Assembly: GCA_963555755.3 (NCBI GenBank)
Contig: OY820905.2
Coordinates: 3,488,001 to 3,552,000 of the forward strand
Reading direction: 5' to 3'
Source of the DNA: Nitrospirales bacterium
Lineage (GTDB): Bacteria; Nitrospirota; Nitrospiria; Nitrospirales; UBA8639
DNA: 64,000 bases
Shown here piece by piece: positions 24,036-57,905 of the stretch. Each line of letters opens with the position of its first letter. Positions within the stretch are counted from its first letter, which is position 1. The notes under the pieces were generated by a model, which saw only the letters and a program-made list of their open reading frames with translations, was not told the DNA's origin and did not search any database. A program made the position numbers and the translations under genes.

Positions 24036-25544
24036 TTACGGAATGAGGCCTGGGGAAGATTGGGCAAATTGTACTCCACCCACCTGGTTCACCAAATGCG
24101 TGACACTGGCATCCATCATTTCCATCAATGGACCAGGATACAGGCCAATCCACAGCACGAGGACGGCTAAGGGAATGACCGTTGCTAATTCACGATAGCT
24201 TAAGTCAGGGAGAAGCGAGGCGGCTTTTGTATTGGGCTCACCCAGGGCCACTCGTTGCAACATCCAAAGCATATAGGCCGCAGCCAAGACGATGCCCACC
24301 ATCGCGAGTAACACCATCACAAAACTTTTGAAGGAGGTACCGATGAGTACCAAGAATTCACCGATAAAATTACACGTACCCGGCAGGCCAAATGACGCAA
24401 TGGAGAAAAGACAAAACAACGTCACAAACCGAGGCATGGTTTTGTGAAGGCCGCCATAGGCACTGATGTCGCGATTGTGTGTCCGGTCATACAACTGACC
24501 GACTGCCAAAAATAGGGCTCCTGTTGTAATACCATGATTAAACATCTGAAGAATCGCGCCCTGAATGCCCTGGCTATTGAAGACAAAAATTCCAAGCGTC
24601 ACAAATCCCATATGGGAAATCGAAGAATAGGCGACCAGCTTTTTAAGATCCGACTGTGCCAAGGCCATGTACCCGCCGTAGATGATAGCCGCGATCGACA
24701 ACCATAAAATAAACGGCGCAAATTGTGCTGAAGCCTCTGGAAACATAGGCAGGCAAAATCGCAAAAACCCATACCCGCCCATTTTCAACAACACTCCAGC
24801 GAGAAGAACACTTCCCGCGGTTGGGGCTTCCGCATGGGCATCAGGCAACCACGTATGGAAAGGCAGCATGGGTATCTTGATGGCAAAGGCTAAAAAGAAC
24901 GCTAAGAAAATCCAAAACTGTACATCCGATGAATAGGTGTGATTGGTGAGGGCCACAATATCAAAAGTGCGGCCCCCTTCGAGATACAGACCTAAAATCC
25001 CCACGAGTAACAACAAGCTACCCGTGAGGCTGTACAGAACAAACTTGATGCCTGCGGCAATCCGGTCGGGTCCTCCCCACAGGATAATCATGAAATACAT
25101 GGGAATCATGGTGATTTCCCACAGCATGAAGAAGAGGAAAAGATCCAGTGCGGTAAAGACCACAATCATGGCGCCTTCAACTAGAAGGATCAGCATCATG
25201 AAGGCTCTGACCCTCGTGGTGATGGACGTCCAAGAGCAGAGGACACAAAGCGGACAGAGAAGAGCCGTTAACAAAACCAGCAGGATGCTAATTCCATCGA
25301 CACCCACGGCATACTGAATGTTGAAGGTGGGCATCCACTGCATACGCTCAACGAACTGCATGCTATGCTGTCCGAAATCAAAACCAGACCAGAGCATGAG
25401 GGACAGCCCAAAATTTAGCAGGGTAGCAGCGAGCGCCGTTCGACGAATCCACTCTTGATTTTGAACGAATGCCAGAGCGGCAATTCCAAGAACAGGAATG
25501 GCAATCATCCAACTAAGAATGTGATCGGCAAAGATAAAGCTCAT
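24036..25544 (-). CDS. NuoM-like antiporter subunit
   Basis: GVDGIS, FFMLWE, AIKIPMLPFHTWLPDAHAEAPT, LLKMGGYG, AYSSISHMG, NFIGE. Confidence 0.92.
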   Translation of the reverse strand: MSFIFADHILSWMIAIPVLGIAALAFVQNQEWIRRTALAATLLNFGLSLMLWSGFDFGQHSMQFVERMQWMPTFNIQYAVGVDGISILLVLLTALLCPLCVLCSWTSITTRVRAFMMLILLVEGAMIVVFTALDLFLFFMLWEITMIPMYFMIILWGGPDRIAAGIKFVLYSLTGSLLLLVGILGLYLEGGRTFDIVALTNHTYSSDVQFWIFLAFFLAFAIKIPMLPFHTWLPDAHAEAPTAGSVLLAGVLLKMGGYGFLRFCLPMFPEASAQFAPFILWLSIAAIIYGGYMALAQSDLKKLVAYSSISHMGFVTLGIFVFNSQGIQGAILQMFNHGITTGALFLAVGQLYDRTHNRDISAYGGLHKTMPRFVTLFCLFSIASFGLPGTCNFIGEFLVLIGTSFKSFVMVLLAMVGIVLAAAYMLWMLQRVALGEPNTKAASLLPDLSYRELATVIPLAVLVLWIGLYPGPLMEMMDASVTHLVNQVGGVQFAQSSPGLIP

Positions 25545-25585
25545 GGGATCCCCTTCTCCCTACACAAGTTCCAATAGGGTTCTCA

Positions 25586-27760
25586 TTACACAAGCCAATA
25601 GAAAAGCCCTATAGCTGCCACTAACCAAAAAATCATGACCAATAAATGGTGCTGAAGCGTCCGTGGTTCGATTCTCTGCAAAAGATGACCTGTTGCATCG
25701 GCCTCCCGTCCCAACCGTTCGACATTCTTTTCAATCCCGCGAATATCGATAACCTGCCAGAGCCACTGAGCCAGGTTCACGGTTTGACCACCAATCCCAA
25801 CTACCCTTCGATCAATGCCTTTGACATCCACTACTTGCCACAGCCAACGAGCGAGGCTCACGGTTTGACGCCCAATCCCAACCACCCCGCGATCTATTCC
25901 TCTGACATCTACAACCTGCCACAGCCATCTGGCCAACGTAACCGATACCCCAGCAATACCACTAATGAAGCGATCAATACCTCCAAGATCAACAGTCCGC
26001 CATAACCATGTGGACAATCGAAGTGTGGGTTGAATCACATAGACTTCGTAGATCTCATCAAAATACAATTTATTCAAAAAAAGTACATACAAAGTTTTTC
26101 CCCATTCCGACTGTGCCAGGAATGATGGTCGGGGTTTGATATGAAGGAAGTAGGCAAAACCCCATCCGCAAAATGCCACGACAAGCGGTAACATGATCCA
26201 CAAAGAGATTCCCCCAAACGTGGTCTGTTCATTGAGGAGTGGAACAGGCTGCCCCAATGCCGGTGCCAGGAATTGAACAAACCACCCCCACAACACCATG
26301 AGAACGCTCACCAACATCACGCCCGCAACGAAAAGTCCTACGAGGTGTGAAGGCGAAAACAACTGGGGCTGGACGACAAACGATTTCCCACCTTCCACAT
26401 CTCTGACTGAGGGTCCGCCCTGAAAGAATAAGAGGATTCCCCGAAAGAGATACATCGCCGTAAAAAAGACAGTGGCTAAGCCCATCACCCAAAAGACAGT
26501 TTTGGCTGAAGCAAAATTATGCACGGTCCACAAATATTCATAAGGCCCTGAAAAGATCACGAAAGGAGGAATGCAGGCTAACACCAGTGCGCCAACAGAC
26601 AAAGACCATGCTGGCCTCGAGGTCGGCCCATGGCCAACATCAGACTGAGGATGGCCGTGGGCTTGAACCGACCGTAGGGCGTTCCCTGTAGACAGGAATA
26701 AAAATGCTTTCAAACATCCATGAGCTAACACATGAAACGTCGCGGCCACAAACGCCCCAATGCCGCAGGTCATGATCATGAACCCAATTTGACTGATCGT
26801 GGAGTAAGCGAGAATCTTTTTAATATCGGTCTGCGTCAGTGAGACAATCGCCGCGAACAGAGCCGTCACCGCACCGACAACCGCGATGACGGTCATAGCC
26901 AGTGGCGAGAAAACAATCAACGGACTTAAACGAATGAGAAGGAAGGGCCCCGCATTCACCATGGTTGCCGCATGGATCAGCGCTGAGACAGGGGTGGGCG
27001 CTTCCATGGCAAACGGCAACCATACATGGAAAGGAAGTTGCGCGGACTTTCCCATTGCACCCATCAACAATAAAAGGGAAATCACTGTCAGGGTGTGAAC
27101 TGAGTATTCAAGCCCTATCCATCCCAACAGATTCATCGTATGCCCACGCATGCTGTCCGCCTGAATCAAAATTTGTTGAATGTCGAGAGTCCCAAATGTG
27201 GCAAAGGTCAGGATGATTCCGAACCCGAGTCCAACATCCGCAACGGCGTTGACTAAAAACGCTTTCGTGGCGGCCTGGCATGCTGATTGTCTTTGAGCAT
27301 AATGGGAGATCAAGAGATAGGAACAGATCCCCATGATCTCCCAACAGATAAACAACATGAGCAGGTTGCTACTCATCACCAACATCACCATGGAAAAGGT
27401 AAACAACGCGATGACCGCGAAGAAACGATTGTAACGGGGATCCCCGATCATGTATCGGGAAGAGTAGATGTGAACGATGCTGCTGACCCCTGTGACCAAC
27501 ATCAACAAGAGGACGGTGAGTTGGTCGATATACAGACCAAGGTCGACGACGAGATTTCCGGACTGAATGAAGCGGTAGAGAGGAACTGATATGGCTCCGT
27601 TCCTTACAACCTCAATGAATGCGCCTACCGACAATCCGAAGGATACACCTATCGCAGGAATCGCAACTTTGTGGCTTTTCTCTCCCACCCACCGCCCGCC
27701 CAACGCGAGAGTAAGAAACGCCACCAAAGGAAGAAGCGGGATCAGAACGTAAACTGACAT
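25586..27760 (-). CDS. NuoL/MrpA/DabB-like antiporter subunit with repeat-extended C-terminal helix
   Basis: WEIMGICSYLLI, KSAQLPFHVWLP.AMEAPTPVSALIHAATMV, KKILAYSTISQIG, HGCLKAFLFL. Confidence 0.92.
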   Translation of the reverse strand: MSVYVLIPLLPLVAFLTLALGGRWVGEKSHKVAIPAIGVSFGLSVGAFIEVVRNGAISVPLYRFIQSGNLVVDLGLYIDQLTVLLLMLVTGVSSIVHIYSSRYMIGDPRYNRFFAVIALFTFSMVMLVMSSNLLMLFICWEIMGICSYLLISHYAQRQSACQAATKAFLVNAVADVGLGFGIILTFATFGTLDIQQILIQADSMRGHTMNLLGWIGLEYSVHTLTVISLLLLMGAMGKSAQLPFHVWLPFAMEAPTPVSALIHAATMVNAGPFLLIRLSPLIVFSPLAMTVIAVVGAVTALFAAIVSLTQTDIKKILAYSTISQIGFMIMTCGIGAFVAATFHVLAHGCLKAFLFLSTGNALRSVQAHGHPQSDVGHGPTSRPAWSLSVGALVLACIPPFVIFSGPYEYLWTVHNFASAKTVFWVMGLATVFFTAMYLFRGILLFFQGGPSVRDVEGGKSFVVQPQLFSPSHLVGLFVAGVMLVSVLMVLWGWFVQFLAPALGQPVPLLNEQTTFGGISLWIMLPLVVAFCGWGFAYFLHIKPRPSFLAQSEWGKTLYVLFLNKLYFDEIYEVYVIQPTLRLSTWLWRTVDLGGIDRFISGIAGVSVTLARWLWQVVDVRGIDRGVVGIGRQTVSLARWLWQVVDVKGIDRRVVGIGGQTVNLAQWLWQVIDIRGIEKNVERLGREADATGHLLQRIEPRTLQHHLLVMIFWLVAAIGLFYWLV
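25685..26008 (-). repeat. 4 x 81-bp (27-aa) tandem repeat inside the NuoL-like gene
   Basis: WLW codons begin at 26008, 25927, 25846 and 25765, an exact 81-bp period. Confidence 0.95.
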
Positions 27761-27862
27761 AGGCTATCTAAAGAATGAACGATTATGAAATTGTTGAACA
27801 ATTCATTTTTCTGACATCAACTGTGCTATCTGATCGATTAAGATAGATTGCCAAGTAGGAAT

Positions 27863-27985
27863 GGGGAATGTTCAAAAAGGTTGTCCAGCAAGGCCGCAGG
27901 GCCTTTGGCGCGCGCAGCGTACACGGAGTACGTGAGCACGACAAAGGCTCGAGAACGCAGCTGGCGGCCTTTTTCAACATTCCCC
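27863..27985. repeat. MITE-like element, family B copy 4 (inside the operon)
   Basis: GGGGAATGTTCAAAAAGG...CCTTTTTCAACATTCCCC. Confidence 0.85.
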
Positions 27986-27991
27986 TTAAGA

Positions 27992-29461
27992 TTACAGCCC
28001 CGCGGGCAGAGCTGAATCAAGCAAAAACCCTACAATGGGATCACTGAACAACCCTAAAAGGATGATCGCGGCTGACACAACACCTATACTCACTTTCATA
28101 GATAATGGCGCCTCAACAGAAATGATCCCTGAAGATGGTTGAGTATCACGAAAAATACGTTCAAAGAGCTTAATGAAATAGGCCAACGTCAAAACAGTAG
28201 AGATGATCACCGCCGCAACCGCGAGATAATTCTGGGCTTCAAGAGCGCCAAGGATGATATACCATTTGCCAAAAAATCCACCGGTTGGGGGAAATCCAAC
28301 CATCGACATGGCCATGATGATGAGCGCACCCGTCATCCATGGCGCTTGTCCTCGCAAACGGCCCAAATCCTCGATGGTCCGAACGCCATACTGATACATC
28401 GCGGCACCTGCCAGGAAAAAGAGGGCGGCCTGCATAACCGCATCATTGATTAAATAAAACACCCCTCCTGCAAAACCCGTCGGATTTCCAATACCGACCC
28501 CGATGAGGATCAACCCAATATGAGAAATCCCACCATAGGCGAACATTCGTTTAACTTCATGTTGTGTCAATGCCAGAAATGCCCCAACCACTGCGGCAAG
28601 GGCCCCCAACTCCACCAGAAGGAACAGGACTGGAACATGTTCAATTTCCGCATTCGCACCCACCACCCAAAACATGATCCGGATCCAGGCGAGTAAGGCC
28701 ACTTTGGTGACCAAAGAAGCGAGGAAAGGTGAAATGGCGTCCGGTGCATGAGTATAGGCATCAGGCAACCACCCATGAAGTGGCATGAGTGCCATCTTAA
28801 TTCCGAGGCCGAGGAACATGAAAATCAACCCTCCAACGATGGCTTTGGAAGTTAATAATTCAGGCACTCGCTGAGCCAAGTCCGCCATGTTGAGCGTTCC
28901 CGTCGCCGCATAAAAGTAGCCCACCCCTAATAAATACAAGGAGGCCCCAAGCGTGCCCAAAATGAGATATCGAAAGGCGGAGACGAGAGCTTTCCCACCT
29001 GCAACTCCTACCAGGGCATACCCGGATAACGCGGCAACTTCCAGGAACACAAACACGTTAAATAAATCCCCAGCGAAGACGATCCCTGTAACCGCTGCAA
29101 TCAACAAAAGGATCAAGGTGTAGTAGGGCACAATCCGTTGTCCAAGCGCAGAAGACGATGTCGGACCTGCATTGATCAAGGAAATCAATGCCAATAGGCT
29201 GAGGGTCACCATGATGACACTCGCCAGCCCATCATCGACCCATTCAATGCCAATGGGAGGCGCCCAGCCGCTGAAGGCATAACGAATTTCTCCTGAATCC
29301 ATGACGACGACAATATTGGCAATCGATGCGACACTCATGGCAGAGACAGCCGCTATTGCCATCGGTTGACACCACTCACGATGTTTCAATCCGACCATGG
29401 GCAAAGAGATGGCTGTCAAGAAGGGAAGCAGGAAGAGGAGCGCGGGAAGGTGATGACTCAT
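27992..29461 (-). CDS. mrpD: Mrp antiporter subunit D-like
   Basis: GWAPPIGIE, GDLFNVFVFLE, TGTLNMADL, IKMALMPLHGWLPDAY, PPTGGFFGKW. Confidence 0.88.
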   Translation of the reverse strand: MSHHLPALLFLLPFLTAISLPMVGLKHREWCQPMAIAAVSAMSVASIANIVVVMDSGEIRYAFSGWAPPIGIEWVDDGLASVIMVTLSLLALISLINAGPTSSSALGQRIVPYYTLILLLIAAVTGIVFAGDLFNVFVFLEVAALSGYALVGVAGGKALVSAFRYLILGTLGASLYLLGVGYFYAATGTLNMADLAQRVPELLTSKAIVGGLIFMFLGLGIKMALMPLHGWLPDAYTHAPDAISPFLASLVTKVALLAWIRIMFWVVGANAEIEHVPVLFLLVELGALAAVVGAFLALTQHEVKRMFAYGGISHIGLILIGVGIGNPTGFAGGVFYLINDAVMQAALFFLAGAAMYQYGVRTIEDLGRLRGQAPWMTGALIIMAMSMVGFPPTGGFFGKWYIILGALEAQNYLAVAAVIISTVLTLAYFIKLFERIFRDTQPSSGIISVEAPLSMKVSIGVVSAAIILLGLFSDPIVGFLLDSALPAGL

Positions 29462-29835
29462 TCCAATCTCTTCAAAATTTCATCTTCATCCAAGGTGCCA
29501 TATTTCCGATAAATCGCCGCGACCAAGGCCAAAGAGACGCCCAAGGTCGCGACCTGGACCACGATCGCCGTTAACGTCAAGACATGCGGTAATGGATTGG
29601 TATAGGTGGCAGCTTGGACTGGGCCTGTTCCGGACAACAGAATAGGAACCGTGGCTCCTGTTTTCGCACTGATTGCCACGAGAAAAAAAATCACGCTGGT
29701 CTGCACGATGTACATGCCAATGAGCTTTTTGACAAGGTTATGGTGGGTCACCATGATGTAGAAGCCCCAGAGAAACAGGATCACGAAGGCAATAAAGTTT
29801 GACCGGTGAAGCCACGTCTCAATGAGTTCAAGCAT
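29458..29835 (-). CDS. mrpC: Mrp antiporter subunit C-like
   Basis: NLVKKLIG, NPLPHVLTLTAIVV, YGTLDEDEI; ATG 29835 overlaps the upstream stop. Confidence 0.88.
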   Translation of the reverse strand: MLELIETWLHRSNFIAFVILFLWGFYIMVTHHNLVKKLIGMYIVQTSVIFFLVAISAKTGATVPILLSGTGPVQAATYTNPLPHVLTLTAIVVQVATLGVSLALVAAIYRKYGTLDEDEILKRLE

Positions 29836-30277
29836 GTGAGTCCTCGTCGTTGTCGTTGGACGACAAACTAAACACAATAGAGATAACCGTCACGGCGACA
29901 TCGACCGCTACACCAATTTGTGTCAGCATGATGCCCACATAACGGCGTGAAGCGACCTCGAGGCCGTAGATTTCGAGGGCGGCGTAATTCAAAAACTCCC
30001 CTCCCCCGATCAGACACAACCCACCGACCCCAGCAAATATCAGCAAACCAAGCCCATCACCATGCACCACCTTCTGCGCCACATTGCTATACGAAGCGTG
30101 AGGACCAAAAATGAGGATCGATAAAATCATACTCGTGCCAAAAATCACCCCACCCACAAATCCTCCCCCGGGGCCATACTGTCCAAAGAACAGCACATAC
30201 AATCCATACAATTGCATTAAGGGAATCAAGAGTCGTCCTAACATGAGAACAATGACACTATCGTGCGCTTGGATCAT
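29828..30277 (-). CDS. mrpB: Mrp antiporter subunit B-like (MnhB domain)
   Basis: GQYGPGGGFVGG motif; 4 TM. Confidence 0.85.
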   Translation of the reverse strand: MIQAHDSVIVLMLGRLLIPLMQLYGLYVLFFGQYGPGGGFVGGVIFGTSMILSILIFGPHASYSNVAQKVVHGDGLGLLIFAGVGGLCLIGGGEFLNYAALEIYGLEVASRRYVGIMLTQIGVAVDVAVTVISIVFSLSSNDNDEDSHA

Positions 30278-30804
30278 GCCTTGTTTCTCCTGAGCAACAA
30301 GGCACAGGCAATCCCGGCTGTAAAAATCACAACGGTCTCAAGCAACGTATCGAAAGCGCGGTAGTCCATAAGAACCGAGGTCACGACATTGGGGGTAAGG
30401 GTATCGTGCATACTGTTTTCCAAGTACACGGGAGAAATATGAACGCTTGCAGGAGAGGCAGGATCTCCAAATTTGGGAAGATCCTCGGCCGCATACAAGA
30501 GGAGAAAGCCAAGCAGAGGCAATCCGATCAACGCGGCCCAGGGAGGGGGCGGACGATGAAGGCGAGTATCCTTTGGAGCTGTCTCAAATAGCGTCAAGAG
30601 AAAAAACACCGTCCCCAAGCCCGCGCCCACGACTGCTTCAACAAACGCCACATCTACAGCTCCAATCCATGCCCACACCAACGCTAAAAAGAAACTGTAG
30701 GACCCCAAAATAAACACCGCTGGCACCAAGTCTTTGACCAGAATGGCTCCACCCGCTGTCAGAATCAGGAGAATCAGTAGAGGAATTTCAAATGAAAACG
30801 TCAT
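30274..30804 (-). CDS. DUF4040 / MrpB N-terminal-like subunit
   Basis: AVDVAFVEAVVGAG; PNVVTSVLMDYRAFDTLLE. Confidence 0.85.
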   Translation of the reverse strand: MTFSFEIPLLILLILTAGGAILVKDLVPAVFILGSYSFFLALVWAWIGAVDVAFVEAVVGAGLGTVFFLLTLFETAPKDTRLHRPPPPWAALIGLPLLGFLLLYAAEDLPKFGDPASPASVHISPVYLENSMHDTLTPNVVTSVLMDYRAFDTLLETVVIFTAGIACALLLRRNKA

Positions 30805-31100
30805 GGTTGTTCTCGCCCCCAAGGTTTGAGGCCAGAGCGAAGCGCCGCGCGAATGGTGGCATGTGAAACGACAGGATTCAATAGATACAGAAGAGCCAGA
30901 ACCACGAGAATTTTGAGCAGGTTCAAGCTGAATCCTTGGTAAATGGCCAACCCTGCCAATACCAGAAACGCACCCAAGGAGTCAGTCAGTGAGAGGGCAT
31001 GTGAGCGGGTAAACACATCTGGCAAACGCAGCATGCCAATGGCCGCGACGATCAGAAAAAACAATCCTGCGAGAATAAAAACGATGGCAATCAGAGACAT
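30801..31100 (-). CDS. mrpG: Mrp antiporter subunit G-like
   Basis: GMLRLPDVFTRSHA..D, NPVVSHA. Confidence 0.88.
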   Translation of the reverse strand: MSLIAIVFILAGLFFLIVAAIGMLRLPDVFTRSHALSLTDSLGAFLVLAGLAIYQGFSLNLLKILVVLALLYLLNPVVSHATIRAALRSGLKPWGREQP

Positions 31101-31367
31101 TTACGCCCTTCCTCGCTGTTCAAGAAATTTGGCAATGGCCAAGGCACCCACGAGATTGAGCAAGGCATATCCCGTGGAGATATCCACGAACATGTCCACC
31201 CGCCCATATACGGTCCCGATCACCACCAGCAAAATAATGGCTTTCGTCGAGATGCCATTGAGGCCCAACACTTGGTCAAACACTGTGGGGCCTTGGACCA
31301 CACGGTACAAATACGCCAAAATTAAGATCACAAGGACGATCAACACGAACAGAAAAAAGAATTTCAT
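31101..31367 (-). CDS. mrpF: Mrp antiporter subunit F-like
   Basis: RVVQGPTVFD, VDISTGYALLN, AKFL. Confidence 0.88.
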   Translation of the reverse strand: MKFFFLFVLIVLVILILAYLYRVVQGPTVFDQVLGLNGISTKAIILLVVIGTVYGRVDMFVDISTGYALLNLVGALAIAKFLEQRGRA

Positions 31368-31861
31368 GCTGAACCCTCTTGCTGCCGAAACACCTTGGCA
31401 ATTTTTTGTTCGAGCCGTTGACTGGTCAAATCATCGCCAGATGCATCATCCATCGCATGGACGATGAGTTCCTGAGCATTCACTTCAGCCGTGATCGTGC
31501 CAGGAGTCAGCGTAATGGAATTTCCTAGAAGAACGATGGCGGCTTGGCCCTGCAACTTGGTTCGGTAGTGAATAAGCTTCGGATCAATGGGAAGAGCAGG
31601 ATGAAGAATGAGGGCAGTCAGATGAAGACTGCTGAGCACAATGCGCCCAAAGAGCCACGGGAAATACCCCAAAATTCGCAACAGGGGTAAGTTTCGGAAA
31701 GGAGAGTCTGCGTGGCCTGAATTCAGCCAAGCCACGCCAAAAGACACCACGAGCCCGAGGCCCATATGAAACGGGTTATATTTTCCTGACAAAATGAGCC
31801 AAATGACAAAAAAAACCAAACTCTTCAAGATGAGTGTTTTATAGAGGCTAGAGTTCATCAT
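31364..31861 (-). CDS. mrpE: Mrp antiporter subunit E-like
   Basis: WLILSG, NSITLTPGT, VHAM. Confidence 0.88.
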   Translation of the reverse strand: MMNSSLYKTLILKSLVFFVIWLILSGKYNPFHMGLGLVVSFGVAWLNSGHADSPFRNLPLLRILGYFPWLFGRIVLSSLHLTALILHPALPIDPKLIHYRTKLQGQAAIVLLGNSITLTPGTITAEVNAQELIVHAMDDASGDDLTSQRLEQKIAKVFRQQEGSA

Positions 31862-31882: not shown

Positions 31883-34800
31883 CTACCCACCCGCGGTCAA
31901 CGCCATGTGTTCCCAAGTTGCATCAGGGTTATATCGATGAATCTCAAAGGTGTTGGGGTCCAGTGCAATAAGATTAAGCCATTGGTTATGGAAAAGCTGC
32001 TGAAGGATCGCGTGTTTTTGAACGATGGACGAGATGACACTCGGCATCGCTTCAATGATAGCCAGCAGCCGAACCGGTTCGTGGTAATGAACATCACCGT
32101 TGTTGACGGTCTGTAGGGGAAAGCCCATTTGTAAATCGCTTTGGCTTCCCAACATCATCCCAACACCACCCACCACATTGTGCAGAACCTTACTCCCACT
32201 GCCATAGACCCATGGGTCAACCGCCGAGAAATAATAGCCCAGATTAATCCACTCTCCGACAATCAAGGGCGCTGTCATAATTTTTTCGAGGATGGCGCCT
32301 TGGGGATCGGCAATTGGATCATAGGAATGTAAAAAGACACGGCCGCCCAAATTCAAGCCTTTGGTCAGCTTTCGTCTTCCAATTAAAAAGGCGGCATTTC
32401 CTGCCAGTCCCCATTCCGGACGAGGGTTGGCCCAATCGCAGCTACGTTCCTCCACATGAGCAAAGGCCTTTTCTGGAGAAATCTCTGTCGGAGCGTTTGG
32501 GATGCGACGGCACCGTTCCAGAGCCTGATTGGCTCCGGCTTCTTCGAGATCCTTGCGCAACACCTGTAAATCCTCTCTATGAGTTTCGGGAAATACTTCC
32601 AGGTCGTAAAACGTGACCCGATCAGTGGTGGTATTGTGCTTGCCCGGAAGAAACCAGGTGTCATCAGGAATGGGTAATCCCTTCTCTTTGAGGATGCGAC
32701 GAACTTCCGGCTCGTTGGCCATTGCGGCAAAGACGCGTGCGTTCGGATCCCCTGGAGCTCCACCGCACGCGCCACAATCCAATGCTCCAAAATAGGGATT
32801 GTTGTCGGTCTCACTGCCATGCCCACACAGGCAAACTAACCGACCATAATTTTGTGTGAGCCCCATCGCACGCAGTCCGTTTTCTATGAACGTGGCCCGT
32901 TCCGTCAGAGAGAAACCCTGTGAGAGCCCAACAGGAATCCCTTCAGCATTCACATCTCCTACTTTTGGGTGTTGAGGATCGGATGGTGCTGACACCGAAA
33001 TCTGTGTCGGCACCGTATGGGTAAACCAACCCCCGATGGTCGATGTGATTGCGTGAAATGGTTTTTGGAGCAGCGTTTTGCCAACCAGACCTAAACTAAA
33101 AAAGACCCCCAGCACATCAATCACCATCATCGAGCCAATCGGGTTATGCTTTAGATCGTGGAACAGATGATGACCGAGCTGATGCCAGCGCGTGCCAGAA
33201 GAATATTTTTGCAATGCCCGTTCTTCTCCCAGCCGAGGCACTTCTGTGACCGCATGGTTGGGTGAAAGTAACACAGGGCATAAGGCTAAACGTTGGTCAC
33301 TATCAAAGGCTTGATGACTGATTGGAATGCCAAAAAATCCGGCGAACCCTAAGGTTTCATAGGGGCCTTGGGCTTCAATATGGCGGCGAAATGATTCGGA
33401 TCGCACATCAATACAAAACACGAGTTGCGCCCGCGGGCGCATTTCTAAGGCCGGAACAGTCCCTCGATGCGCAGAAATTTTTTGAAGGATCTCCCCGCGA
33501 AAACCCTCTTCATACGCCTCGAGCCACACTGGGCCATGGCGATCTGCGGGAAAACCTTCCAGCCAACTCAACAAGGTCTGGGCATCCGAGAAGGAGAGGT
33601 CGTGCAGCTCTATTGGAGACAGCTCAAGAAACTGTGCAAGGTGAAACAACCGCCAGGCATCCCGGCAAATAGCCTGTGTCCGGGGATCAACAGCATGAGC
33701 GCTTTCCCTCACTTGGTTCTCATATTCATCCGGTCGATCCTGCCAAAAGGCGATCAACGCGGAAGCGGTTCCATCAATCCCCCACTCTCGCTGACAGATG
33801 ATTTGGGCCAGTTCCAGTTCATAGAACAGGCGAACGGCTAGATACTGTGTGGTGTCAATGGGGTGCTTGTGTTGCGCATGATACGCTGGATTTTCCCCAA
33901 GCCATCGAATGTACCGCGTCCAACCCGGCAATAATGATAACTGCCTTGACAGATAATCTTTCCATTGTTCTTGTGGGATTCCAAGACGATGCAAACTGGC
34001 TACGACTGCATCTTCAGGTTCGTTTGGAAGATCGTGGATTTTTTGTGAGAAATCTTTTATCCCAAGAAATGTTCCTGAATGATCTTGTTGAACCAATTCT
34101 CGCCAAGCCTGATAAAAGCCTTCGTGTCGTAAGGGCATTTCCCATCCGGCTAACCCTTCATCAAGAAAGGCCGCCACCCATTTGATGAGTTGACCGTTGA
34201 TTGACTCGACCAATGTTGTTCCGGCCAACACATCCACCCAATCGCTGAGCGTTCGCTGAGCTGGAAGCGAAATATTCAATTGAGCGTGAGGGTCATCTGA
34301 AACGCCAGAGAGGGAACTCCTCGATGTTGGATCGCTGGAATGGGCATCAGATAGTTGCAGGACGGCCAAAGTGCTCTTCCACAAATTTGTGAGATAGGCC
34401 TCCTCAGGATAATCTCGACAATGCTCACATTCTCTGATCGTTCGTTCGATGATTCGTTGCCGAGATTCATCTGAAAGGTCTTGACGAAAACGCTTGGTGG
34501 CCCTACCCCCACTGAGTTCCCATTGCAGGAGGGTTGTCTCACAAGGTTCAAACCCATGGACGAGGTGCAATGCCCAAATATCAAGGGCCGTCACCCGGCG
34601 GCTTCCTATTTGGACAGAATCTTGTTTTTCTGGTCGAGGTCCAACTCTCGCGAAAGCACGCTTGAGGCTTTCGGGGGTAATGCGACCATCTCGATAGAAC
34701 TGCCGATACTCTTCATTTGGCAGATACCCATTTCCGCCTACCAGGCGTTTGCCTTTTCGAACCGCCTGGTCAAACGGAAGATATTCCAATCCATGAATAG

Positions 34801-34924
34801 GATTCTGGGCGACCATCGTTCTCATAGGCCAAAACGGAGCAATCGGTTCGCTCGCCTGTTCAACAGTCTGTCGTACCTGATCGCGCTCTTCTTGGGAAAT
34901 CGTATTTGTGGAAGTGATGCTCAT
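31883..34924 (-). CDS. dabA: inorganic carbon transporter subunit DabA/MpsB (DUF2309)
   Basis: IAPFWP...NP, FCIDVRSE, GFAGFFG, CGHGS, LDCGACGG, HNTTTD, RPEWGLAGNA, GSGSKVLHNV, HEPVRL. Start placed at ATG 34924, downstream of the leader terminator. Confidence 0.95.
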   Translation of the reverse strand: MSITSTNTISQEERDQVRQTVEQASEPIAPFWPMRTMVAQNPIHGLEYLPFDQAVRKGKRLVGGNGYLPNEEYRQFYRDGRITPESLKRAFARVGPRPEKQDSVQIGSRRVTALDIWALHLVHGFEPCETTLLQWELSGGRATKRFRQDLSDESRQRIIERTIRECEHCRDYPEEAYLTNLWKSTLAVLQLSDAHSSDPTSRSSLSGVSDDPHAQLNISLPAQRTLSDWVDVLAGTTLVESINGQLIKWVAAFLDEGLAGWEMPLRHEGFYQAWRELVQQDHSGTFLGIKDFSQKIHDLPNEPEDAVVASLHRLGIPQEQWKDYLSRQLSLLPGWTRYIRWLGENPAYHAQHKHPIDTTQYLAVRLFYELELAQIICQREWGIDGTASALIAFWQDRPDEYENQVRESAHAVDPRTQAICRDAWRLFHLAQFLELSPIELHDLSFSDAQTLLSWLEGFPADRHGPVWLEAYEEGFRGEILQKISAHRGTVPALEMRPRAQLVFCIDVRSESFRRHIEAQGPYETLGFAGFFGIPISHQAFDSDQRLALCPVLLSPNHAVTEVPRLGEERALQKYSSGTRWHQLGHHLFHDLKHNPIGSMMVIDVLGVFFSLGLVGKTLLQKPFHAITSTIGGWFTHTVPTQISVSAPSDPQHPKVGDVNAEGIPVGLSQGFSLTERATFIENGLRAMGLTQNYGRLVCLCGHGSETDNNPYFGALDCGACGGAPGDPNARVFAAMANEPEVRRILKEKGLPIPDDTWFLPGKHNTTTDRVTFYDLEVFPETHREDLQVLRKDLEEAGANQALERCRRIPNAPTEISPEKAFAHVEERSCDWANPRPEWGLAGNAAFLIGRRKLTKGLNLGGRVFLHSYDPIADPQGAILEKIMTAPLIVGEWINLGYYFSAVDPWVYGSGSKVLHNVVGGVGMMLGSQSDLQMGFPLQTVNNGDVHYHEPVRLLAIIEAMPSVISSIVQKHAILQQLFHNQWLNLIALDPNTFEIHRYNPDATWEHMALTAGG

Positions 34925-34956: not shown

Positions 34957-35055
34957 AAAAAAAGCCAACCGCTTTTACCTCCTGTTCAGAGGACCACGGT
35001 TGGCTTGCACTGTGGCTGACCGTATTCACCTAGCGAGTCAACCACCCCACAGCCT
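34957..35055 (-). promoter_or_regulatory. candidate cis-regulatory RNA (hairpin + AGUGCAA + intrinsic terminator) in the dabA leader
   Basis: Minus strand GCUGUG-GGGUGG-UUGAC..GUCAG-C-CAC-AGUGCAA-GCCAACCG...CGGUUGGC-U7; same architecture at 38120-38218. Confidence 0.75.
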
Positions 35056-35220
35056 ATGTTGAAAGGTTAGGCTCAATCCTAGAATTCCTGCCACCCTCAG
35101 CTGAAACCCGTGAAGGAAGCAGGGGCCTATCCTTGACCTCTCAAAAATCAATAGCTTATATCATCTTTTTTAGCAAGGACTCTTGGTCGGAACAAGAGAT
35201 TTTTAGTCAGCAGGAGACTA

Positions 35221-35628
35221 TTGCCCATGGGTTATGGACAAAGCAAAGGCGAGGCGGAGACAGCCATCCGCAATGCCATCATTAAATTCGAACAAGAATT
35301 TATGGGACGCGGGCCAACGGACGTCAAAGCCTTCATCCTTCGTGACATGGTCTTGGTGAGACTGAAAGGGGTGTTAACTCCAGCGGAACGCCAACTTGCC
35401 AAGAATCCCGAAGGTGTTGAAATGGTCAAACAGATGCGACAAAACTTGATCTCACAAGGGCGAGAAAAACTCTGTAGCCAAATTTCCGCTATTACCGGGA
35501 CCGAGGTCACAGGATTATTTACCGATATCGAGACCCAAATCGGTGAACGCGTGATGGTCTTTACCCTCGAAAACGACCTTGACGCGACCTTCCGCGAGCC
35601 CTCAACTTTTTCAAAAACTTCACAGTAG
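35221..35628 (+). CDS. DUF2294 (MpsC/YbcI-like) protein
   Basis: SKGEAE..I..AIIKFEQEFMGRGP..VK...DMVLVRLKGVLTPAE..L, LFTDI....GERVMVFTL. Confidence 0.9.
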   Translation: MPMGYGQSKGEAETAIRNAIIKFEQEFMGRGPTDVKAFILRDMVLVRLKGVLTPAERQLAKNPEGVEMVKQMRQNLISQGREKLCSQISAITGTEVTGLFTDIETQIGERVMVFTLENDLDATFREPSTFSKTSQ

Positions 35629-36129: not shown

Positions 36130-36295
36130 CAAATGTTGAAATCTGATCTAGAGAGGAGGGTGAAGAAGTACACTAGAAGGCCAGGCGTGGCGATGCGCCG
36201 TCAAGAGAAAGAAGAGTGGAAAAGTGTATAAACCTGCATTTCATCTTTCCGGCACTGTCAGGTAAAAGAAAGTCCTATGAAGAGAAATCCTCCTT

Positions 36296-36392
36296 TCGTC
36301 ATCCTCGCAATTTTTAAGCGGGGATCCATCTGCTTTTTTTCCTGGCAGAAACAGCAAGATGGATTCCCGCTAACGACCGGCGGGAATGACGG
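36296..36392. repeat. REP-like inverted pair downstream of sulP
   Basis: CGTCATCCTCGC...GCGGGGATCCATC and GATGGATTCCCGC...GCGGGAATGACG. Confidence 0.65.
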
Positions 36393-36417
36393 GGCAAGAG
36401 TAAAGTTACCTCTTTCT

Positions 36418-38082
36418 TTATGAATCGTGAAGGTCCTTTTGCCAGAGTTTTGGCTTCTTATGAGCAGCGACGATAGAATCAGCAATGGGTTGATGCTCTG
36501 CTAACCCCCGAACCAATAATTCACAATCTTTTTCCTCGAATTCTATAATCCATTCATAGAGCTTGGACATCACGGTGTGATCGACTAATCGAGTGTCGGC
36601 GAAATTCAGCCTGACGTTTTTTCCTTCTTCCAGGTAGCGATGAAGATACTTGCGCAACGGGATCCAGGTGCTAAAAACAGCTGAATCTTTCACATAGATG
36701 GTCACGGTGTTGTCATCTGATTCGACAACCTCAACGTTCAATTTGAAAAACGAGGAAACCGGGGCTCCATTGATGAGATGAATAACCACTTTCACTCCGA
36801 TCCCAATAGCAATGCCTTTCAGAAGATCAGTTGCGAGGACTCCCACGATCGTAGACATAAAAACAATGAACTGGTCTTTTCCCAAATGATACATGTGGAC
36901 AAATTCTTGGGGTGACGCCAATCGAAAACCCGTAAAGACTAACAATGCGCCCAAAGCCGCCAACGGGATTTGATTGATCAGCCCGGGGATTAAAGCCACA
37001 AACACCAATAGAAAAAGCCCATGATACATATTGGCAAACCGCGTCCTCGCTCCATTGTCGATATTCGCCTTACTTCGAATAATCTCTGAAATCATCGGCA
37101 ATCCACCAACCAAGGCCGCCAGCGTATTGCCGACACCCACCGCAAGCAAATCTTGATCCATATTTGTCTTTCGTCCCCAGGGATCAATACCATCAATCGC
37201 CTTCGCACTGAGCAACGACTCCAGGCTCCCGATTAACGCAAACATGATCACGTACTTTATGCCGATCGAAGTCGTGAGCCCCGAAAAATCGGGAAGGGTC
37301 AGAGCACTGAACATGTTTTTCGGAACATTCACCAAGAACTGTGTTCCTAAGACATATGTCTGATCATGAAAGGCATACGTTCCTTCCTGTCCTACACCCA
37401 AAAATAGCCCCAGAGGAACGGCGACGAACAACACGATCATCGGCGCCGGCACGATTTTCAATTTTTGATTTTTGATGAAGGTATACCCAAACATGATCAG
37501 TATGCTCACAATTCCAATTAAGCCAATTTTTGGATTCATCTCCATCACAAATGTTGGGAAGTTGGCTAAGAGGTCTAATGGTGTCCCTTCAGAACTAAGC
37601 CCCATCATGATCGGAAACTGCTTGGCGATAATGATGACCCCAATGGCTGCCAACAATCCATGAATCGCCGTCGTTGGGAAAAACTCTCCCAGGATCCCTG
37701 CCCGGAACACCCCAAGGAAAATTTGAAGAACACCAGCGGCGACCCCAACGCCCAGAGCCAACCGGTACGCTTGGTAATCCGCTGCCGGATCCTTTCCTCC
37801 TGTAAAACCAAATTCAGTGACGCAGCCAATCGCGATGACAATGAGCCCCGCAGCTGGGCCTTTAATCGTGAGTTCGGAATTACTGAAGAACGTGGCTAAG
37901 AGACCACCGATGATGGCAGTAAAAATTCCAGAAATGGCTGGATACCCACAGGCTAAAGAAATGCCGAGGCACAGGGGAAGGGCAATGAGAAACACCAGAA
38001 ACCCAGACAGAAGATCTTCCGGGAAATGCGCTCGCAGCCCTGCGAGATTTCCTTTTGGTATGGATGCAGTGTTTGATTGCAT
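36418..38082 (-). CDS. SulP/SLC26 family anion (probably bicarbonate) transporter with STAS-like tail
   Basis: DLLSGFLVFLIALPLCLGISLACG, IKGPAAGL, ESLLSAKA, GGLPMISEIIRS..N; start at ATG 38082, after the leader terminator. Confidence 0.92.
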   Translation of the reverse strand: MQSNTASIPKGNLAGLRAHFPEDLLSGFLVFLIALPLCLGISLACGYPAISGIFTAIIGGLLATFFSNSELTIKGPAAGLIVIAIGCVTEFGFTGGKDPAADYQAYRLALGVGVAAGVLQIFLGVFRAGILGEFFPTTAIHGLLAAIGVIIIAKQFPIMMGLSSEGTPLDLLANFPTFVMEMNPKIGLIGIVSILIMFGYTFIKNQKLKIVPAPMIVLFVAVPLGLFLGVGQEGTYAFHDQTYVLGTQFLVNVPKNMFSALTLPDFSGLTTSIGIKYVIMFALIGSLESLLSAKAIDGIDPWGRKTNMDQDLLAVGVGNTLAALVGGLPMISEIIRSKANIDNGARTRFANMYHGLFLLVFVALIPGLINQIPLAALGALLVFTGFRLASPQEFVHMYHLGKDQFIVFMSTIVGVLATDLLKGIAIGIGVKVVIHLINGAPVSSFFKLNVEVVESDDNTVTIYVKDSAVFSTWIPLRKYLHRYLEEGKNVRLNFADTRLVDHTVMSKLYEWIIEFEEKDCELLVRGLAEHQPIADSIVAAHKKPKLWQKDLHDS

Positions 38083-38119: not shown

Positions 38120-38218
38120 AAAAAACCAGTCAGAATTCAGGGAGACCCTCCACGAATCCTCAACTGGCTTGCACTGTACCTGGGCTTAAACATCTGAAAC
38201 CCAGCTACCCTACCTACC
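38120..38218 (-). promoter_or_regulatory. candidate cis-regulatory RNA in the sulP leader (same motif as dabA leader)
   Basis: Minus strand GUA-GGGUAG-CUGGGUUU..AAGCCCAG-G-UAC-AGUGCAA-GCCAGUU...GACUGGU-U5. Confidence 0.75.
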
Positions 38219-38350
38219 GATGTATAAAGTGGGACCACAACCATGACATCCCACCATTTGCCTGTCTTCTGTTCAAAAGAATTTTAGCTTGAGCACCCAA
38301 ATGGAGCAACTAGTTTTTTTTGTTGGGGGATCGAGTAAAAGGCATCACAG

Positions 38351-38463
38351 AAAACTCGAAATCCGAATATCGAAATTCGAAACAAATCAGAAATCCTAAA
38401 TTCGAACTTTTCAATTGGGATATTCCCATGTGTTTCGGATTTCGATATTCGTGCTTCGGATTT
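38351..38463. repeat. heptamer-based inverted repeat cassette, copy 2
   Basis: AAACTCGAAATCCGAATATCGAAATTCGAAAC...GTTTCGGATTTCGATATTCGTGCTTCGGATTT. Confidence 0.75.
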
Positions 38464-38615
38464 ACGCTCTTATTCTTCCTCCATCAACAAAGAGAACGCA
38501 AATATTTTGAAAAAGCTATAAATAGCCGACAGCACAATTGAGGAAATCAGGGATGGCTTGCCTAAGTATATCGAACCATGCGCAATGAGGGGTTCACAAA
38601 AGGTCGGACGACGAA

Positions 38616-46699: not shown

Positions 46700-47971
46700 A
46701 CCTCGGTGGCGATAAGACATTTTTTTATTGTGCGAGGAGCCTGTCCGAGATTAGGGATCGTGACGAGGGGACGCCGGTTTGATACTACACGCTTTAAGGA
46801 GTGGTTCAAGGCTTGGATCGAAACCGAATGGTGAGGTTGGGAATGGCTGTAACGGAGAAAATATATTAATCTCATTGCCGTAACGGAGAGAATATATTAA
46901 TCTAATTAAGGGTCAGTGAAAGACCAACTACCTTTTTGTGTTATGCAACCGTGTACCCTGTTCAACAAACTTACCCCCCAATACCTCACGCATCCGGTGC
47001 AACGCATGGGTGAACGTCCGGACAAATATTGCAGGTGGCTGCCACCTGTCTGCATGCTAAGCCTTCTGTTGTTCCTGGTGGGGTGTACAATGCCATCCCT
47101 GAAGAAGGGGGGAGAGTATGCGGTTCTGGTAGAAGCCTACAAGACAAAAAATGCTCAGTTGCAAGCACAACGCCAACAAGCTCTGTCAAAGGGCATCAGG
47201 GAACTGCAAGTTATCAAGGGCGAACCGCCGGACCACTTTCGCGTCAGTGTTGATCTGACCAATGCTTTGCTGCCAGTGGTCGTCGGTCGGGTGCTGGACG
47301 CCACCGAAATCCCCTACCTGTTCAATGAGACCGTGTTGACCGGAAAAGTTACGGCCCGATTTCAGAACCTTCCACTACAACTTGCGCTCAATTTACTCCT
47401 GGACTCAAGGGGACTTTCGGTCGTGTGGAAGGATAACGTGTTAGTCTTCCGCAGGGGTGTGGCAGAAGGTCCGGTAATCGCCTCACCTGCACAACCTGAT
47501 GACGTCGCAGGGAAATCTAATGGCGCCGCCGGAGAACCGCCCGGTCCAAATCCCAAAGCCACTAAGTACCTGGAAATCCCGATGCAATATATTGATATGG
47601 AGACAGTTAGCAATTTTTTAAGCGGTCTTTTTCCCAACAACGACGATGAGGGAGGTTTCCTCTCTTATGGACTACAACCCAATACCAACACCGTCTTTTT
47701 ACTCGGGCCGGGTGACCAAGTGAACAGGGCTGCCGCGCTCCTGCGTAAGGCCGATCACGCTCCGGCACATGTCTTCATCGAGGCGTTGGTGGTCCAGTTC
47801 AGTTCCGAAGAGTTAGAAGCGCTGGGTATTGATATTACCAACATCTCAGCCGGACAGTTTAGCGACGTTGTCAGTAACTTTGGCAGTCTGGCCTCGCCTG
47901 CGGCTGTCGTTACCTTCATCAATAGCGATCGCAATATTACCAGTTTGACAGCCACAATTGAAGCGTTGGTC

Positions 47972-55876: not shown

Positions 55877-57905
55877 GTGCGACCAGGCAAGGCTGGTCTG
55901 ATGGGAAAGGAGGCTGCGATGACTCTTTGAAAATCAGTTCATGGTCCAGTGGGTGCAAAACCCACCCAACCAAAGCGGAGCCCGGCAGGGTGGTAGCAAG
56001 CCTTGCGCCAGCGCGGGTAACCGTTATGGCGATGCGTAGGCATGCGAGCGTATGGGCCGCAGGAAATGCAGCCTCGAAAAGTGGAATATCCTGGATGTCT
56101 AGGGGCTCGGAATCTCTGAAGACCACGGCGTCGTCGCCGGTATGGGGCAAGGCGGCGGGGCATCCGGCGGGGTGAACGACTGGGGCACGTACGAAGAGGA
56201 TGATCCAGGAACCTGGGAGGCCCTCATTTCTCCCTGGGAGATACCCGGTGCCACGGGGACCCGGTGACCACTCTCCGACGAACACGCGGACGCGGGTGCC
56301 TGCGTGACTCGGTGTAGAACAAGCACTCGCCTCAGGGTAGGCCGACGGCAAGGGGAACCGGAGCTGCGGCTGAGGGGGATGAGGGAGTCGGAGGGCGGCA
56401 TAGGAGCGACAACGTCGGGGAACGGGGTGGTGCCTGGACCGGACCGAGCAAAGGCTGCCCGTGTTGATAGGAACGTCAGGAGGGAACCATGACCAAGGCA
56501 TTGATGTGGGATTCCATGTCACCGGAACTTTTGACGGTAGCGGAACGAGCGAAACGGGAACCCGAAGGACGATTTCACGCCTTGGCCCATCTCATCGATG
56601 TGCCAGCTCTGACACGCGCCTACCGACGACTCCGCAGGAATGCCGCGGTAGGTGTGGATGGTATCACCAAGGAGCAGTATGGGCAGGAGCTGGAGCGGAA
56701 TCTCCAGGATCTGCATCACCGGCTGAAGACGAAGCGGTATCGTCATCAACCGATTCTCCGGGGATATGTGCCAAAGGGGCAGGGTCGGCACAGGCCGATT
56801 GGGATATCGGCGACAGAGGACAAAGTGGTCCAAGGGGCGCTGCGGGACGTATGGGAGGCCATATACGAGACGGAGGTTACCGATAGCTCGTATGGGTTTC
56901 GACCGAAACGCGGTGCGCATGACGCGCTTCGGACTTTGAACCGAGCGGGGCATGGTGGGGAAATGAACTGGATCGTGGAGGCGGACATCGTCTCGTACTT
57001 TGACAGCTTGGATCGCACCAAGCTGAAGGAGATGATTCAGAAACGGGTCGCCGATGGGGCGCTCATGCGGCTCATTGGCAAATGCTTGAATGTGGGCGTG
57101 CTGGACGGCGAGGTGTATTCCGAGCCGGACGTGGGCACGGCCCAAGGATCGGTCCTCTCCCCGCTCCTCGGGAACAGCTACCTCCATTACGTGCTCGATC
57201 TCTGGGTAGAATCCGAAGTGAAGCCACACCTCCGGGGGAAGTGCATCTTCGTCCGGTATTGTGATGACTTCATCTTTGGTTTCGAATGCCAGGACGATGC
57301 GGAGTGGGTGATGCTGCTGCTGGGAAAGCGGATGGGAACATATGGACTGACCCTCCATCCGGACAAGACTCGCCTGTTGTACTTTGGGCGACCGTTCAAG
57401 GGGCAGCAGGCAGGCAAGGGGCCGGCCAGTTTCGATTTCCTCGGGTTCACGCTGTAGTGGAAGCGGTCCCGATATGGACGCTGGATCTTGGCATTCAAGA
57501 CCCGAGGTGCACGCCTCACGCGGGCCATTCGGTCTGTGTACGACCGGTGCCGACGCCATCGGCACCGGTCGGTGAAGGAGCAGCACATGGCGCTCGGGAG
57601 GCACGTGCGCGGCCACATGAACTATTTTGGCGTGAACGGGAATATCCGTAGCCTGCATCTTCTTCTGGTGCAGGTTCAACGTGCCTGGTTCAAGTGGCTT
57701 CGGCGTCGCAGCCAACGGACGCGCCTCACGTGGGAGAGGTATCAGGACCTGTTACGGGACTTTCCTCTTCCCCGTCCACGGATCGTCGTCCAGATCTGGG
57801 GGCGGTAACCCGCGAGCCATATCAGCGGAGGAGCCGGATGGTCGAAATGTCCTTGTCCGGTTCTGGCGAGGGCCTCGGCTGGGTGACTGGCCGGGGCTAC
57901 TCTAC
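55877..57905 (+). mobile_element. group II intron
   Basis: 5' GTGCG; domain V GAGCCGGATG...GTCCGGTTC; domain VI ending CTACTCTAC; candidate EBS1 CGGAAT (56108-56113) pairs with exon end ATTCTG. Confidence 0.9.
56489..57808 (+). pseudogene. ltrA: intron reverse transcriptase/maturase with in-frame TAG (57455-57457); no endonuclease domain
   Basis: GVDG, RPIGI, SYGFRP, DIVSYFD, GTAQGSVLSPLL, RYCDD, HPDKT, FDFLGFTL*W; maturase GHMNYFG...WLRRRSQ. Confidence 0.88.

Follow-up and report, generated by a model that had tools for sequence, protein, structure and literature searches.

MpsC (DUF2294) proteins as the likely operators of a hairpin-terminator leader RNA of inorganic carbon genes in Nitrospirales

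Our comparative analysis, which started from a 64,000-nucleotide stretch of the genome of a Nitrospirales bacterium (hereafter the window), establishes that the association between the MpsC (DUF2294) family and a structured leader RNA is real and non-random. The hypothesis that protein and RNA form one regulatory unit passes the test that can be computed, with exceptions that we describe below. We propose that MpsC is likely the factor which operates the leader as a switch, and that it probably responds to CO2 or bicarbonate.

The MpsC gene of the window occupies 35221..35628 on the plus strand, where the ORF list has it beginning at TTG. A likelier start is the in-frame ATG at 35227, located 10 nt past an AGGAG (35212-35216), and since relatives start at the same methionine the protein is probably 133 residues long. 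In Pfam searches the ORF is matched by PF10057 (E 2.5e-37; 127.8 bits against a cut-off of 23) over residues 9-117, covering positions 2-110 of the 111-position profile, with no second domain. The gene is single-copy in this 4.6-Mb genome, which is 99.4% complete, and is divergent from dabA (PF10070, minus strand) and convergent with a gene for a SulP-family protein (PF00916). The Pfam match and the matches of our RNA model R1 thus bear out the first-pass annotation in its claim that a stand-alone DUF2294 gene is divergent from the dabA leader and lies between two copies of a leader motif. The dabA gene (31883..34924, minus strand, ATG at 34924, 1013 residues) is the first behind leader 1 and is directly followed by nine genes for Mrp/complex-I-like membrane subunits (24036..31861, minus strand), which Pfam identifies as MnhE, F, G, MbhD/E, MnhB, a 4L-like subunit and three PF00361 proteins. 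DabA here heads a nine-gene cluster with three PF00361 subunits in place of a single DabB. Model R1 detects no extra leader copy between these nine genes; a third copy, before mnhE, is common in relatives and absent here. The SulP-family anion transporter (36418..38082, minus strand, likely start ATG 38082) scores below the BicA, DauA and sulP cut-offs.

Upstream of mpsC a promoter-like TTGACC-N17/18-TATA arrangement is found at 35133..35161 on the plus strand, and the pattern recurs in 11 of the 19 relatives checked, while the box is absent from the four sites called by a consensus promoter scan. The box is a putative mpsC promoter, and its TATA half may double as the -10 element of the divergent dabA transcript. 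Contigs from RNA run X1, which convey neither transcript ends nor levels, touch parts of dabA and sulP at low depth and leave mpsC and the dabA leader uncovered. Just upstream of the sulP leader lies a repeat (38352-38480) with 87 blastn matches in the genome and high contig depth, which looks like a MITE or REP-type element; a smaller second repeat family (36220-36400, with 9 other matches in the genome) lies between mpsC and the 3' end of sulP, and a group II intron fragment (RF02005) is present at 55956-56182.

The two leaders share an anatomy in which a hairpin and a predicted intrinsic terminator compete for the same bases. The predicted antiterminator hairpin 1, before dabA, spans 35001..35058 on the minus strand, about 160 nt from mpsC, and its basal GGC (35054-35052) pairs with GCC (35004-35002). 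The predicted terminator 1 (34957..35004, minus strand; a stem followed by U7) begins with the three bases that form the 3' strand of that basal stem. Likewise, the predicted antiterminator hairpin 2, before the SulP gene (38165..38221, minus strand), overlaps by three bases the predicted terminator 2 (38120..38168, minus strand; a long stem followed by U6). Model R1 has exactly two matches in the 4.6-Mb genome, namely these leaders; folded together with their terminators, they have z-scores of -3.85 and -3.46. The hairpin of about 55 nt comprises a basal GG(C/U)-GCC pairing, an internal loop with AA on its 3' side, a 3-bp helix, a GG/AG loop and a variable upper stem. The basal GCC doubles as the start of the long terminator stem, which then runs into U6-7, so that hairpin and terminator are mutually exclusive by a 3-nt overlap. 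Forcing the basal stem costs +4.8 kcal/mol in leader 1 and +4.0 kcal/mol in leader 2. As the terminator fold is thus favored by 4-5 kcal/mol, the predicted default state is OFF, and the base of the hairpin would need to be stabilized to switch the genes ON. Both terminators escaped a simple terminator scan, since their loops are long.

Of the GGGURG/AGUGCAA motif proposed in the first-pass annotation, the two copies are real; AGUGCAA, however, turns out to be a minority variant that this genome happens to carry, the 3' consensus of its relatives being CAGUACAAGCC. A strict AGUGCAA-form pattern matched 2 of 81 loci, and the consensus form was used instead. Five near-identical elements resembling IS ends, located near positions 47290, 2074787, 4026526, 3705418 and 38462 of contig C1 of this genome (G000), also fit a loose GGGURG/AGUGCAA pattern and were rejected, as they have no terminator.

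To define the element beyond this genome we gathered leader copies from 80 loci fetched with MpsC. In a MAFFT alignment of 47 sequences, 9 of the 15 base pairs show compensatory change, and 88.7% of cells are paired as against 24-46% in slid controls. A model-fitted alignment of 108 rows (102 distinct sequences), which leans toward the structure by construction, gives compensatory change in 11 of 15 pairs and again 88.7% pairing, versus 19-49% in slid controls. The basal stem displays no two-sided change and is aligned in two registers. Within the Nitrospirales many loop bases are at least 90% conserved, the copies sit before dabA, dabB, sulP or mnhE, and by a script rule a terminator follows 103 of the 108 model matches. 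A general hairpin-plus-terminator filter is lossy, overlooking both leaders of the window and those of loci L204, L221 and L223; in a rough control it gave one other match in 4.6 Mb, and it picked out 6 of 14 MpsC-bearing loci against none of 15 DAB loci without mpsC. Among the matches listed from a metagenome pattern scan, 13 of 120 combine stem and terminator, most matches being due to chance; the recognizable ORFs behind these stem-terminators are, again among the matches listed, DabB-, DabA- or SulP-like.

Searches against Rfam 15 recovered no gathering match at either leader, only chance ones (E 1.5-6.9), and the variants from distant lineages described below are likewise without an Rfam match. 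The Na+-I riboswitch (RF03071) is a small hairpin ON-switch that lies ahead of ion-transport genes. The leaders resemble it in featuring a small hairpin, and in that some copies precede MnhE-type genes; nevertheless, they differ in that RF03071 does not match either of them up to E 1, its matches lying elsewhere.

We then surveyed 151 Nitrospirales genomes that are at least 90% complete, detecting the RNA with model R2 at E up to 0.05. MpsC is present in 108, the RNA in 110 and DabA in 137; both MpsC and the RNA occur in 103, MpsC alone in 5, the RNA alone in 7 and neither in 36. Among the 137 DabA-bearing genomes the RNA is found in 103 of 106 with MpsC versus 7 of 31 without, and hence the motif is uncommon where DUF2294 is missing, contrary to the refuting condition named in the first-pass annotation. 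The genomes with MpsC alone are G079, G100 and G145, along with G121 and G241, which have pseudogenes; those with the RNA alone have either strong (G127, G234, G256) or weak matches (G073, G170, G208, G216), with G256 being uninformative because it is in 370 contigs. Three genomes were scored as MpsC-positive although the match holds a stop (G225) or is only a distant paralog (G136, G253). Family f2 has numerous genomes with a second, distant MpsC paralog (E 1e-6 to 1e-19), which is often encoded close to another DAB locus.

The same pattern is apparent at close range: in genus g2, where dabA and sulP are kept in all 36 genomes, the RNA accompanies MpsC in 20 of 20 and is found in 4 of the 16 genomes without it, one of these being a strong match. 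As related genomes are not independent, we built a SulP tree to obtain independent pairs. Its 56 rows consist of 22 genomes lacking intact MpsC and 34 with MpsC, eleven named loci that resemble duplicates of genomes already included and one partial gene having been omitted. MpsC status changes 12 times on this tree. At a threshold of 35 bits there are 10 independent pairs, in 9.3 of which the RNA follows MpsC with none in the opposite direction (sign test, median p 0.004); at 20 bits, 6.7 pairs go the same way and none the opposite way (p 0.016). Given that the RNA models were trained on loci fetched with MpsC, and are therefore biased toward MpsC-positive genomes, we also inspected the upstream DNA directly.

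On the tree, the RNA has decayed in 20 of the 22 sulP genomes that lack intact MpsC, while sulP itself is retained. By direct inspection, in ten genomes (G073, G103, G121, G168, G173, G177, G182, G208, G224 and G232) the leader has decayed by substitution in place. The decayed form is one and the same in G121, G168, G182 and G232, whose decay may go back to a single event. Substitution with the DNA still present indicates that the coupled loss is not only a matter of joint deletion. The sulP leader has been deleted outright in G067, G170, G178, G202, G240 and G260, and the terminator is broken in the dabA/dabB leaders of G103, G173, G208 and G224, as expected upon the loss of an activator. In G188, MpsC has substitutions at conserved positions and the leaders are weak (28 and 20 bits), compared to 42 bits in its sister G230.

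The exceptions fall on both sides. In G234 (2 contigs, 99% complete) mpsC survives only in decayed form, yet the sulP leader, terminator and ORF are intact; G127 (1 contig) is without mpsC and has a near-intact leader with one basal change. The terminator also persists without MpsC before an intact sulP in G073, G121, G168, G182 and G232, and before mnhE in G208 and G216. These terminators count against a strictly required activator, since such a loss would leave the genes off. With terminators kept in some MpsC-less genomes and broken in others, the losses do not fix the direction of control. Conversely, no leader was found in the MpsC-bearing G079, G100 and G145, the second of which has three MpsC matches, and four MpsC-positive genomes (G085, G192, G206 and G212) have lost the sulP leader and kept another. 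G079 carries an SbtA gene (PF05982; L215:8173-10101) divergent from mpsC, and its dabA is a fragment with stops.

In a phylum-wide sample (n=151) MpsC was found in 40 genomes and DabA in 46, and, save for two weak matches, model R1 is restricted to the Nitrospirales. A related hairpin with the same base (GG...AR-GCC running into a terminator) and a purine 2x2 loop placed higher up occurs in other MpsC loci: G019 has it ahead of mpsC as well as of dabB, G082 and G133 ahead of dabB. The latter two genomes apparently carry two tandem hairpin-terminator units between mpsC and dabB (L220:8320-8520 and L221:11600-11830). G019 belongs to family f13, in which DabA is present in 7 of 7 genomes while MpsC and this second type of hairpin are confined to G019; in 5 of the 6 other f13 genomes a scan of the DNA upstream of dabB found no such hairpin. 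Matches to the second-type pattern in G028, G036 (a repeat) and G135 were set aside as chance, for they have no overlapping terminator.

In MpsC-bearing genomes that lack DAB, too, a hairpin-terminator lies near mpsC in 4 of 5. It precedes a beta-carbonic anhydrase-mpsC pair in G025 and G039; in G032 it occurs before isocitrate dehydrogenase (icd) and again before mpsC and ATP-citrate lyase; and in G125 it precedes a Sua5 fusion and purE, albeit with a weak fold (z -1.8). In the fifth, G008, where mpsC follows purE, no element was found near mpsC. Both Sua5 and PurE use bicarbonate or CO2. In G019 and G032 mpsC itself sits immediately behind a leader, which suggests that it controls its own expression. 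The evidence from the Bacillota consists of four plasmid records with MpsC. One from Anoxybacillus has the order DUF2294, hairpin-terminator, SbtA; in one from Acetoanaerobium a weak hairpin-terminator precedes an MFS gene; that of S. pettenkoferi carries a terminator ahead of mpsA, the hairpin upstream of it being weak and devoid of the GG/CC base; and in the B. badius plasmid no hairpin-terminator was seen. Upstream of the Anoxybacillus DUF2294 gene there is, in addition, an extended stretch that seems to be structured and closes with a U-run (L202:7820-7990); it has no Rfam match. What is shared across the lineages amounts to a few basal bases and the purine 2x2 loop, with stem lengths varying; we believe that so little shared sequence is more in keeping with a site bound by a protein than with a metabolite pocket. 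To judge from gene content, the common theme of the leader targets, whose products move, hydrate or fix CO2/bicarbonate, is inorganic carbon, not sodium or pH.

The MpsC protein itself was modeled with AlphaFold using 75 homologs (pLDDT 93), which yielded a helix, two strands, two helices and two strands; the single-sequence fold was poor (pLDDT 61) and its structure search uninformative. No sequence match to MpsC was found in the PDB, and Foldseek returned no match to the model at E<=0.001, an absence that does not by itself make the fold new. The best structural Z is 6.7, with RbfA at 5.7, all within the range of common arrangements; of the known RNA-binding folds, KH/RbfA and ribosomal S6/L23 included, none gave a clear match. 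The GRGP, LTxAE, KxxR, xD and GE motifs are intact, with G29-P32, L52, E56, K70, R73, D102 and E109 being at least 90% conserved in the 75 homologs. Conserved basic residues are R30, R47, K70 and R73 (91-96%) and R81 (83%), and conserved acidic ones are E13, E56, E109 and the invariant D102. Overall the protein is not basic (pI 5.6, net charge -1; family median pI 6.1). Homodimer prediction scored 0.62 versus 0.00 for the best control, with runs agreeing in at least 95% of contacts and pLDDT at least 82; 20 of 30 solved homodimers attained the corresponding mark, compared with 1 of 23 monomers. These predictions support MpsC as a putative homodimer. The predicted interface is the sheet and contains R47, position 100 (H/F/Y), D102 and E109, with R30, K70, R73 and R81 lying outside the named interface residues. 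Fusions of a receiver domain to MpsC, as would suit an output domain, occur in 2 of 39 longer homologs; among 7997 candidates of 302-2000 residues there was no fused form, a result that carries little weight.

Taken together, these observations are, we consider, somewhat better explained than not by a mechanism in which dimeric MpsC binds the base of the hairpin and prevents the terminator, allowing dabA-mrp and sulP to be read when inorganic carbon is low. In such a scheme an MpsC dimer would contact the basal GG..AR-GCC loop and the purine-rich 2x2 loop, and would hold the hairpin closed so that the overlapping predicted terminator could not form; transcription would then read through into dabA-mrp and sulP, probably under a scarcity of inorganic carbon. 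MpsC would be inactivated by high CO2/HCO3- or by a metabolite reporting it, this being the weakest step of the proposal; that MpsC itself binds CO2 or bicarbonate we offer only tentatively. The low-carbon-ON direction derives from the nature of the targets and from the behavior of S. aureus mpsA, whose mRNA falls 1.7-2.5-fold in 5% CO2 (PMC6689103). The idea of an RNA-binding antiterminator or carbon sensor, raised in the first-pass annotation, thereby gains from the co-occurrence, the coupled loss, the antiterminator/terminator anatomy and the inorganic carbon targets, and is weakened by the leaders of G234 and G127 and by the terminators that outlast MpsC.

The exceptions might instead point to the leader being a riboswitch for bicarbonate/CO2 or a related metabolite or ion, with MpsC acting elsewhere in carbon supply, perhaps through allosteric control over the transporters in the way that SbtB governs SbtA, and being lost alongside the leader once regulation is not needed. 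The intact leaders in G234 and G127, the many Nitrospirales loop bases at or above 90% conservation, the silent ΔmpsC of S. aureus and the near-neutral charge of MpsC would all be in keeping with this. We nonetheless consider it unlikely: across lineages the shared bases are few and stem lengths differ, which is scant material for a small-molecule pocket, nearly all MpsC-less genomes that keep sulP have a decayed RNA, and no Rfam family, RF03071 included, matches. Alternatively, MpsC might act indirectly as a sensor or partner, with RNA polymerase, a Nus factor or an unknown RNA binder contacting the RNA. Coupled loss requires only a shared pathway, MpsC has neither a basic net charge nor a known RNA-binding fold, and D102, E109, R47 and H/F/Y100 in the predicted dimer interface could constitute a ligand site. 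Against this, the genome has no match to the CAT domain (PF03123), its one ANTAR protein is encoded 1.8 Mb from the leaders, which are single long hairpins unlike the dual hairpin of ANTAR targets (PMC12591593), and no second gene was seen traveling with the leaders in a non-systematic inspection of loci; we therefore regard such indirect action as distinctly improbable.

The direction of control could also be the reverse, with MpsC binding the leader as a negative or fine-tuning factor that favors termination once inorganic carbon is high; without MpsC the terminator would be leaky. Such a role would account for the terminators and intact sulP genes that outlast MpsC in at least 7 genomes, and for normal growth of ΔmpsC in air, as expected when a repressor is lost. 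It sits poorly with a terminator that is already the favored fold and with conserved bases that form the competing stem, and several MpsC-less lineages have broken or deleted the terminator; we hold it to be quite unlikely. Finally, mpsC and the leader could be mere neighbors in a deletable block with no functional tie, as the short distance between mpsC and the dabA hairpin and the several losses by deletion might suggest. This we view as very improbable, for leaders kilobases away, past an intact sulP or dabA, decay by substitution, and in distant lineages the leader and MpsC are again found together, there with target genes that are unrelated. With regard to the mechanism that we prefer, the joint loss could reflect relaxed selection on the whole regulatory layer, as opposed to physical contact.

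Among known systems, we lean toward antitermination of the RAT/BglG kind, with a new protein family, as the best reading. In BglG, SacY and LicT a dimeric protein binds a short RAT stem-loop that partly overlaps an intrinsic terminator, resulting in read-through (PMC12591593). The corresponding hairpin-terminator overlap is seen here in the sequence, with the MpsC dimer being predicted and its binding inferred, and just as an antiterminator gene can sit behind its own target in those systems, a leader precedes mpsC in G019 and G032. Unlike BglG, SacY and LicT, MpsC has neither a CAT (PF03123) nor a PRD domain but only PF10057; its associated hairpin is about 55 nt with a 3-nt overlap as against about 30 nt for RAT, and the targets are inorganic carbon genes rather than sugar PTS operons. 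MpsC is not mentioned in the available portion of the antitermination review (PMC12591593). A further parallel is offered by the ANTAR regulators AmiR, NasR and EutV, in which a small RNA-binding output domain is likewise found fused to receivers (PMC12591593; PMC3369931), although MpsC is a predicted alpha/beta protein without a PF03861 match and its target is a single long hairpin, not a dual one.

The closest kin by gene content are S. aureus mpsABC and B. subtilis ndhF-ybcC, where a member of the same protein family lies beside the DabAB/MpsAB pump. In S. aureus ΔmpsC grows without a defect in air and mpsC was called dispensable; in E. coli, complementation is achieved by mpsAB alone under the control of its own promoter (PMC6689103). 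The accessible parts of the literature on these two loci give no mechanism, RNA structure or role for MpsC. They do hold hints: S. aureus RsaX05, with a promoter and a terminator, is listed as "Cis-acting leader of ndhF?" (PMC2790875), the 158-nt RNA ncr181 lies upstream of B. subtilis ndhF (PMC2965217), and a computational list flags the same upstream region (PMC4448311). RsaX05 and ncr181 can be seen as earlier hints of the leader described here, with which they could possibly be identical. A search of mostly open-access main texts returned no MpsC function, no regulator of the pump and no description of the leader RNA; nor do the accessible parts of bioRxiv 10.64898/2026.09.08.750065, PMC7857571, PMC11394868, PMC13684180 and PMC7266159 describe the leader or MpsC as a regulator.

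At its broadest, and as a tentative proposal, MpsC would be a CO2/bicarbonate-sensing RNA-binding antiterminator with a fold of its own, which together with the hairpin constitutes a post-initiation inorganic carbon regulon across Nitrospirota and Bacillota, including DAB/Mps pumps, SulP, SbtA, carbonic anhydrase and bicarbonate-consuming enzymes. In that case MpsC would be the long-missing regulator of mpsAB/DAB, with the sensing residing in the protein. The new parts in this proposal would be the protein family, the RNA and the signal, antitermination itself being of a known kind. DAB/MpsAB pumps provide nitrifiers, other autotrophs and heterotrophs such as Bacillus and Staphylococcus with inorganic carbon, and their expression is CO2-responsive (PMC6689103). 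If the proposal holds, the orphan MpsC family would gain a function and a new RNA element would be defined; bacterial CO2/bicarbonate sensing would then include a two-part switch, made of a 133-residue protein and an RNA of about 100 nt, that could be reused as a CO2-responsive tool.
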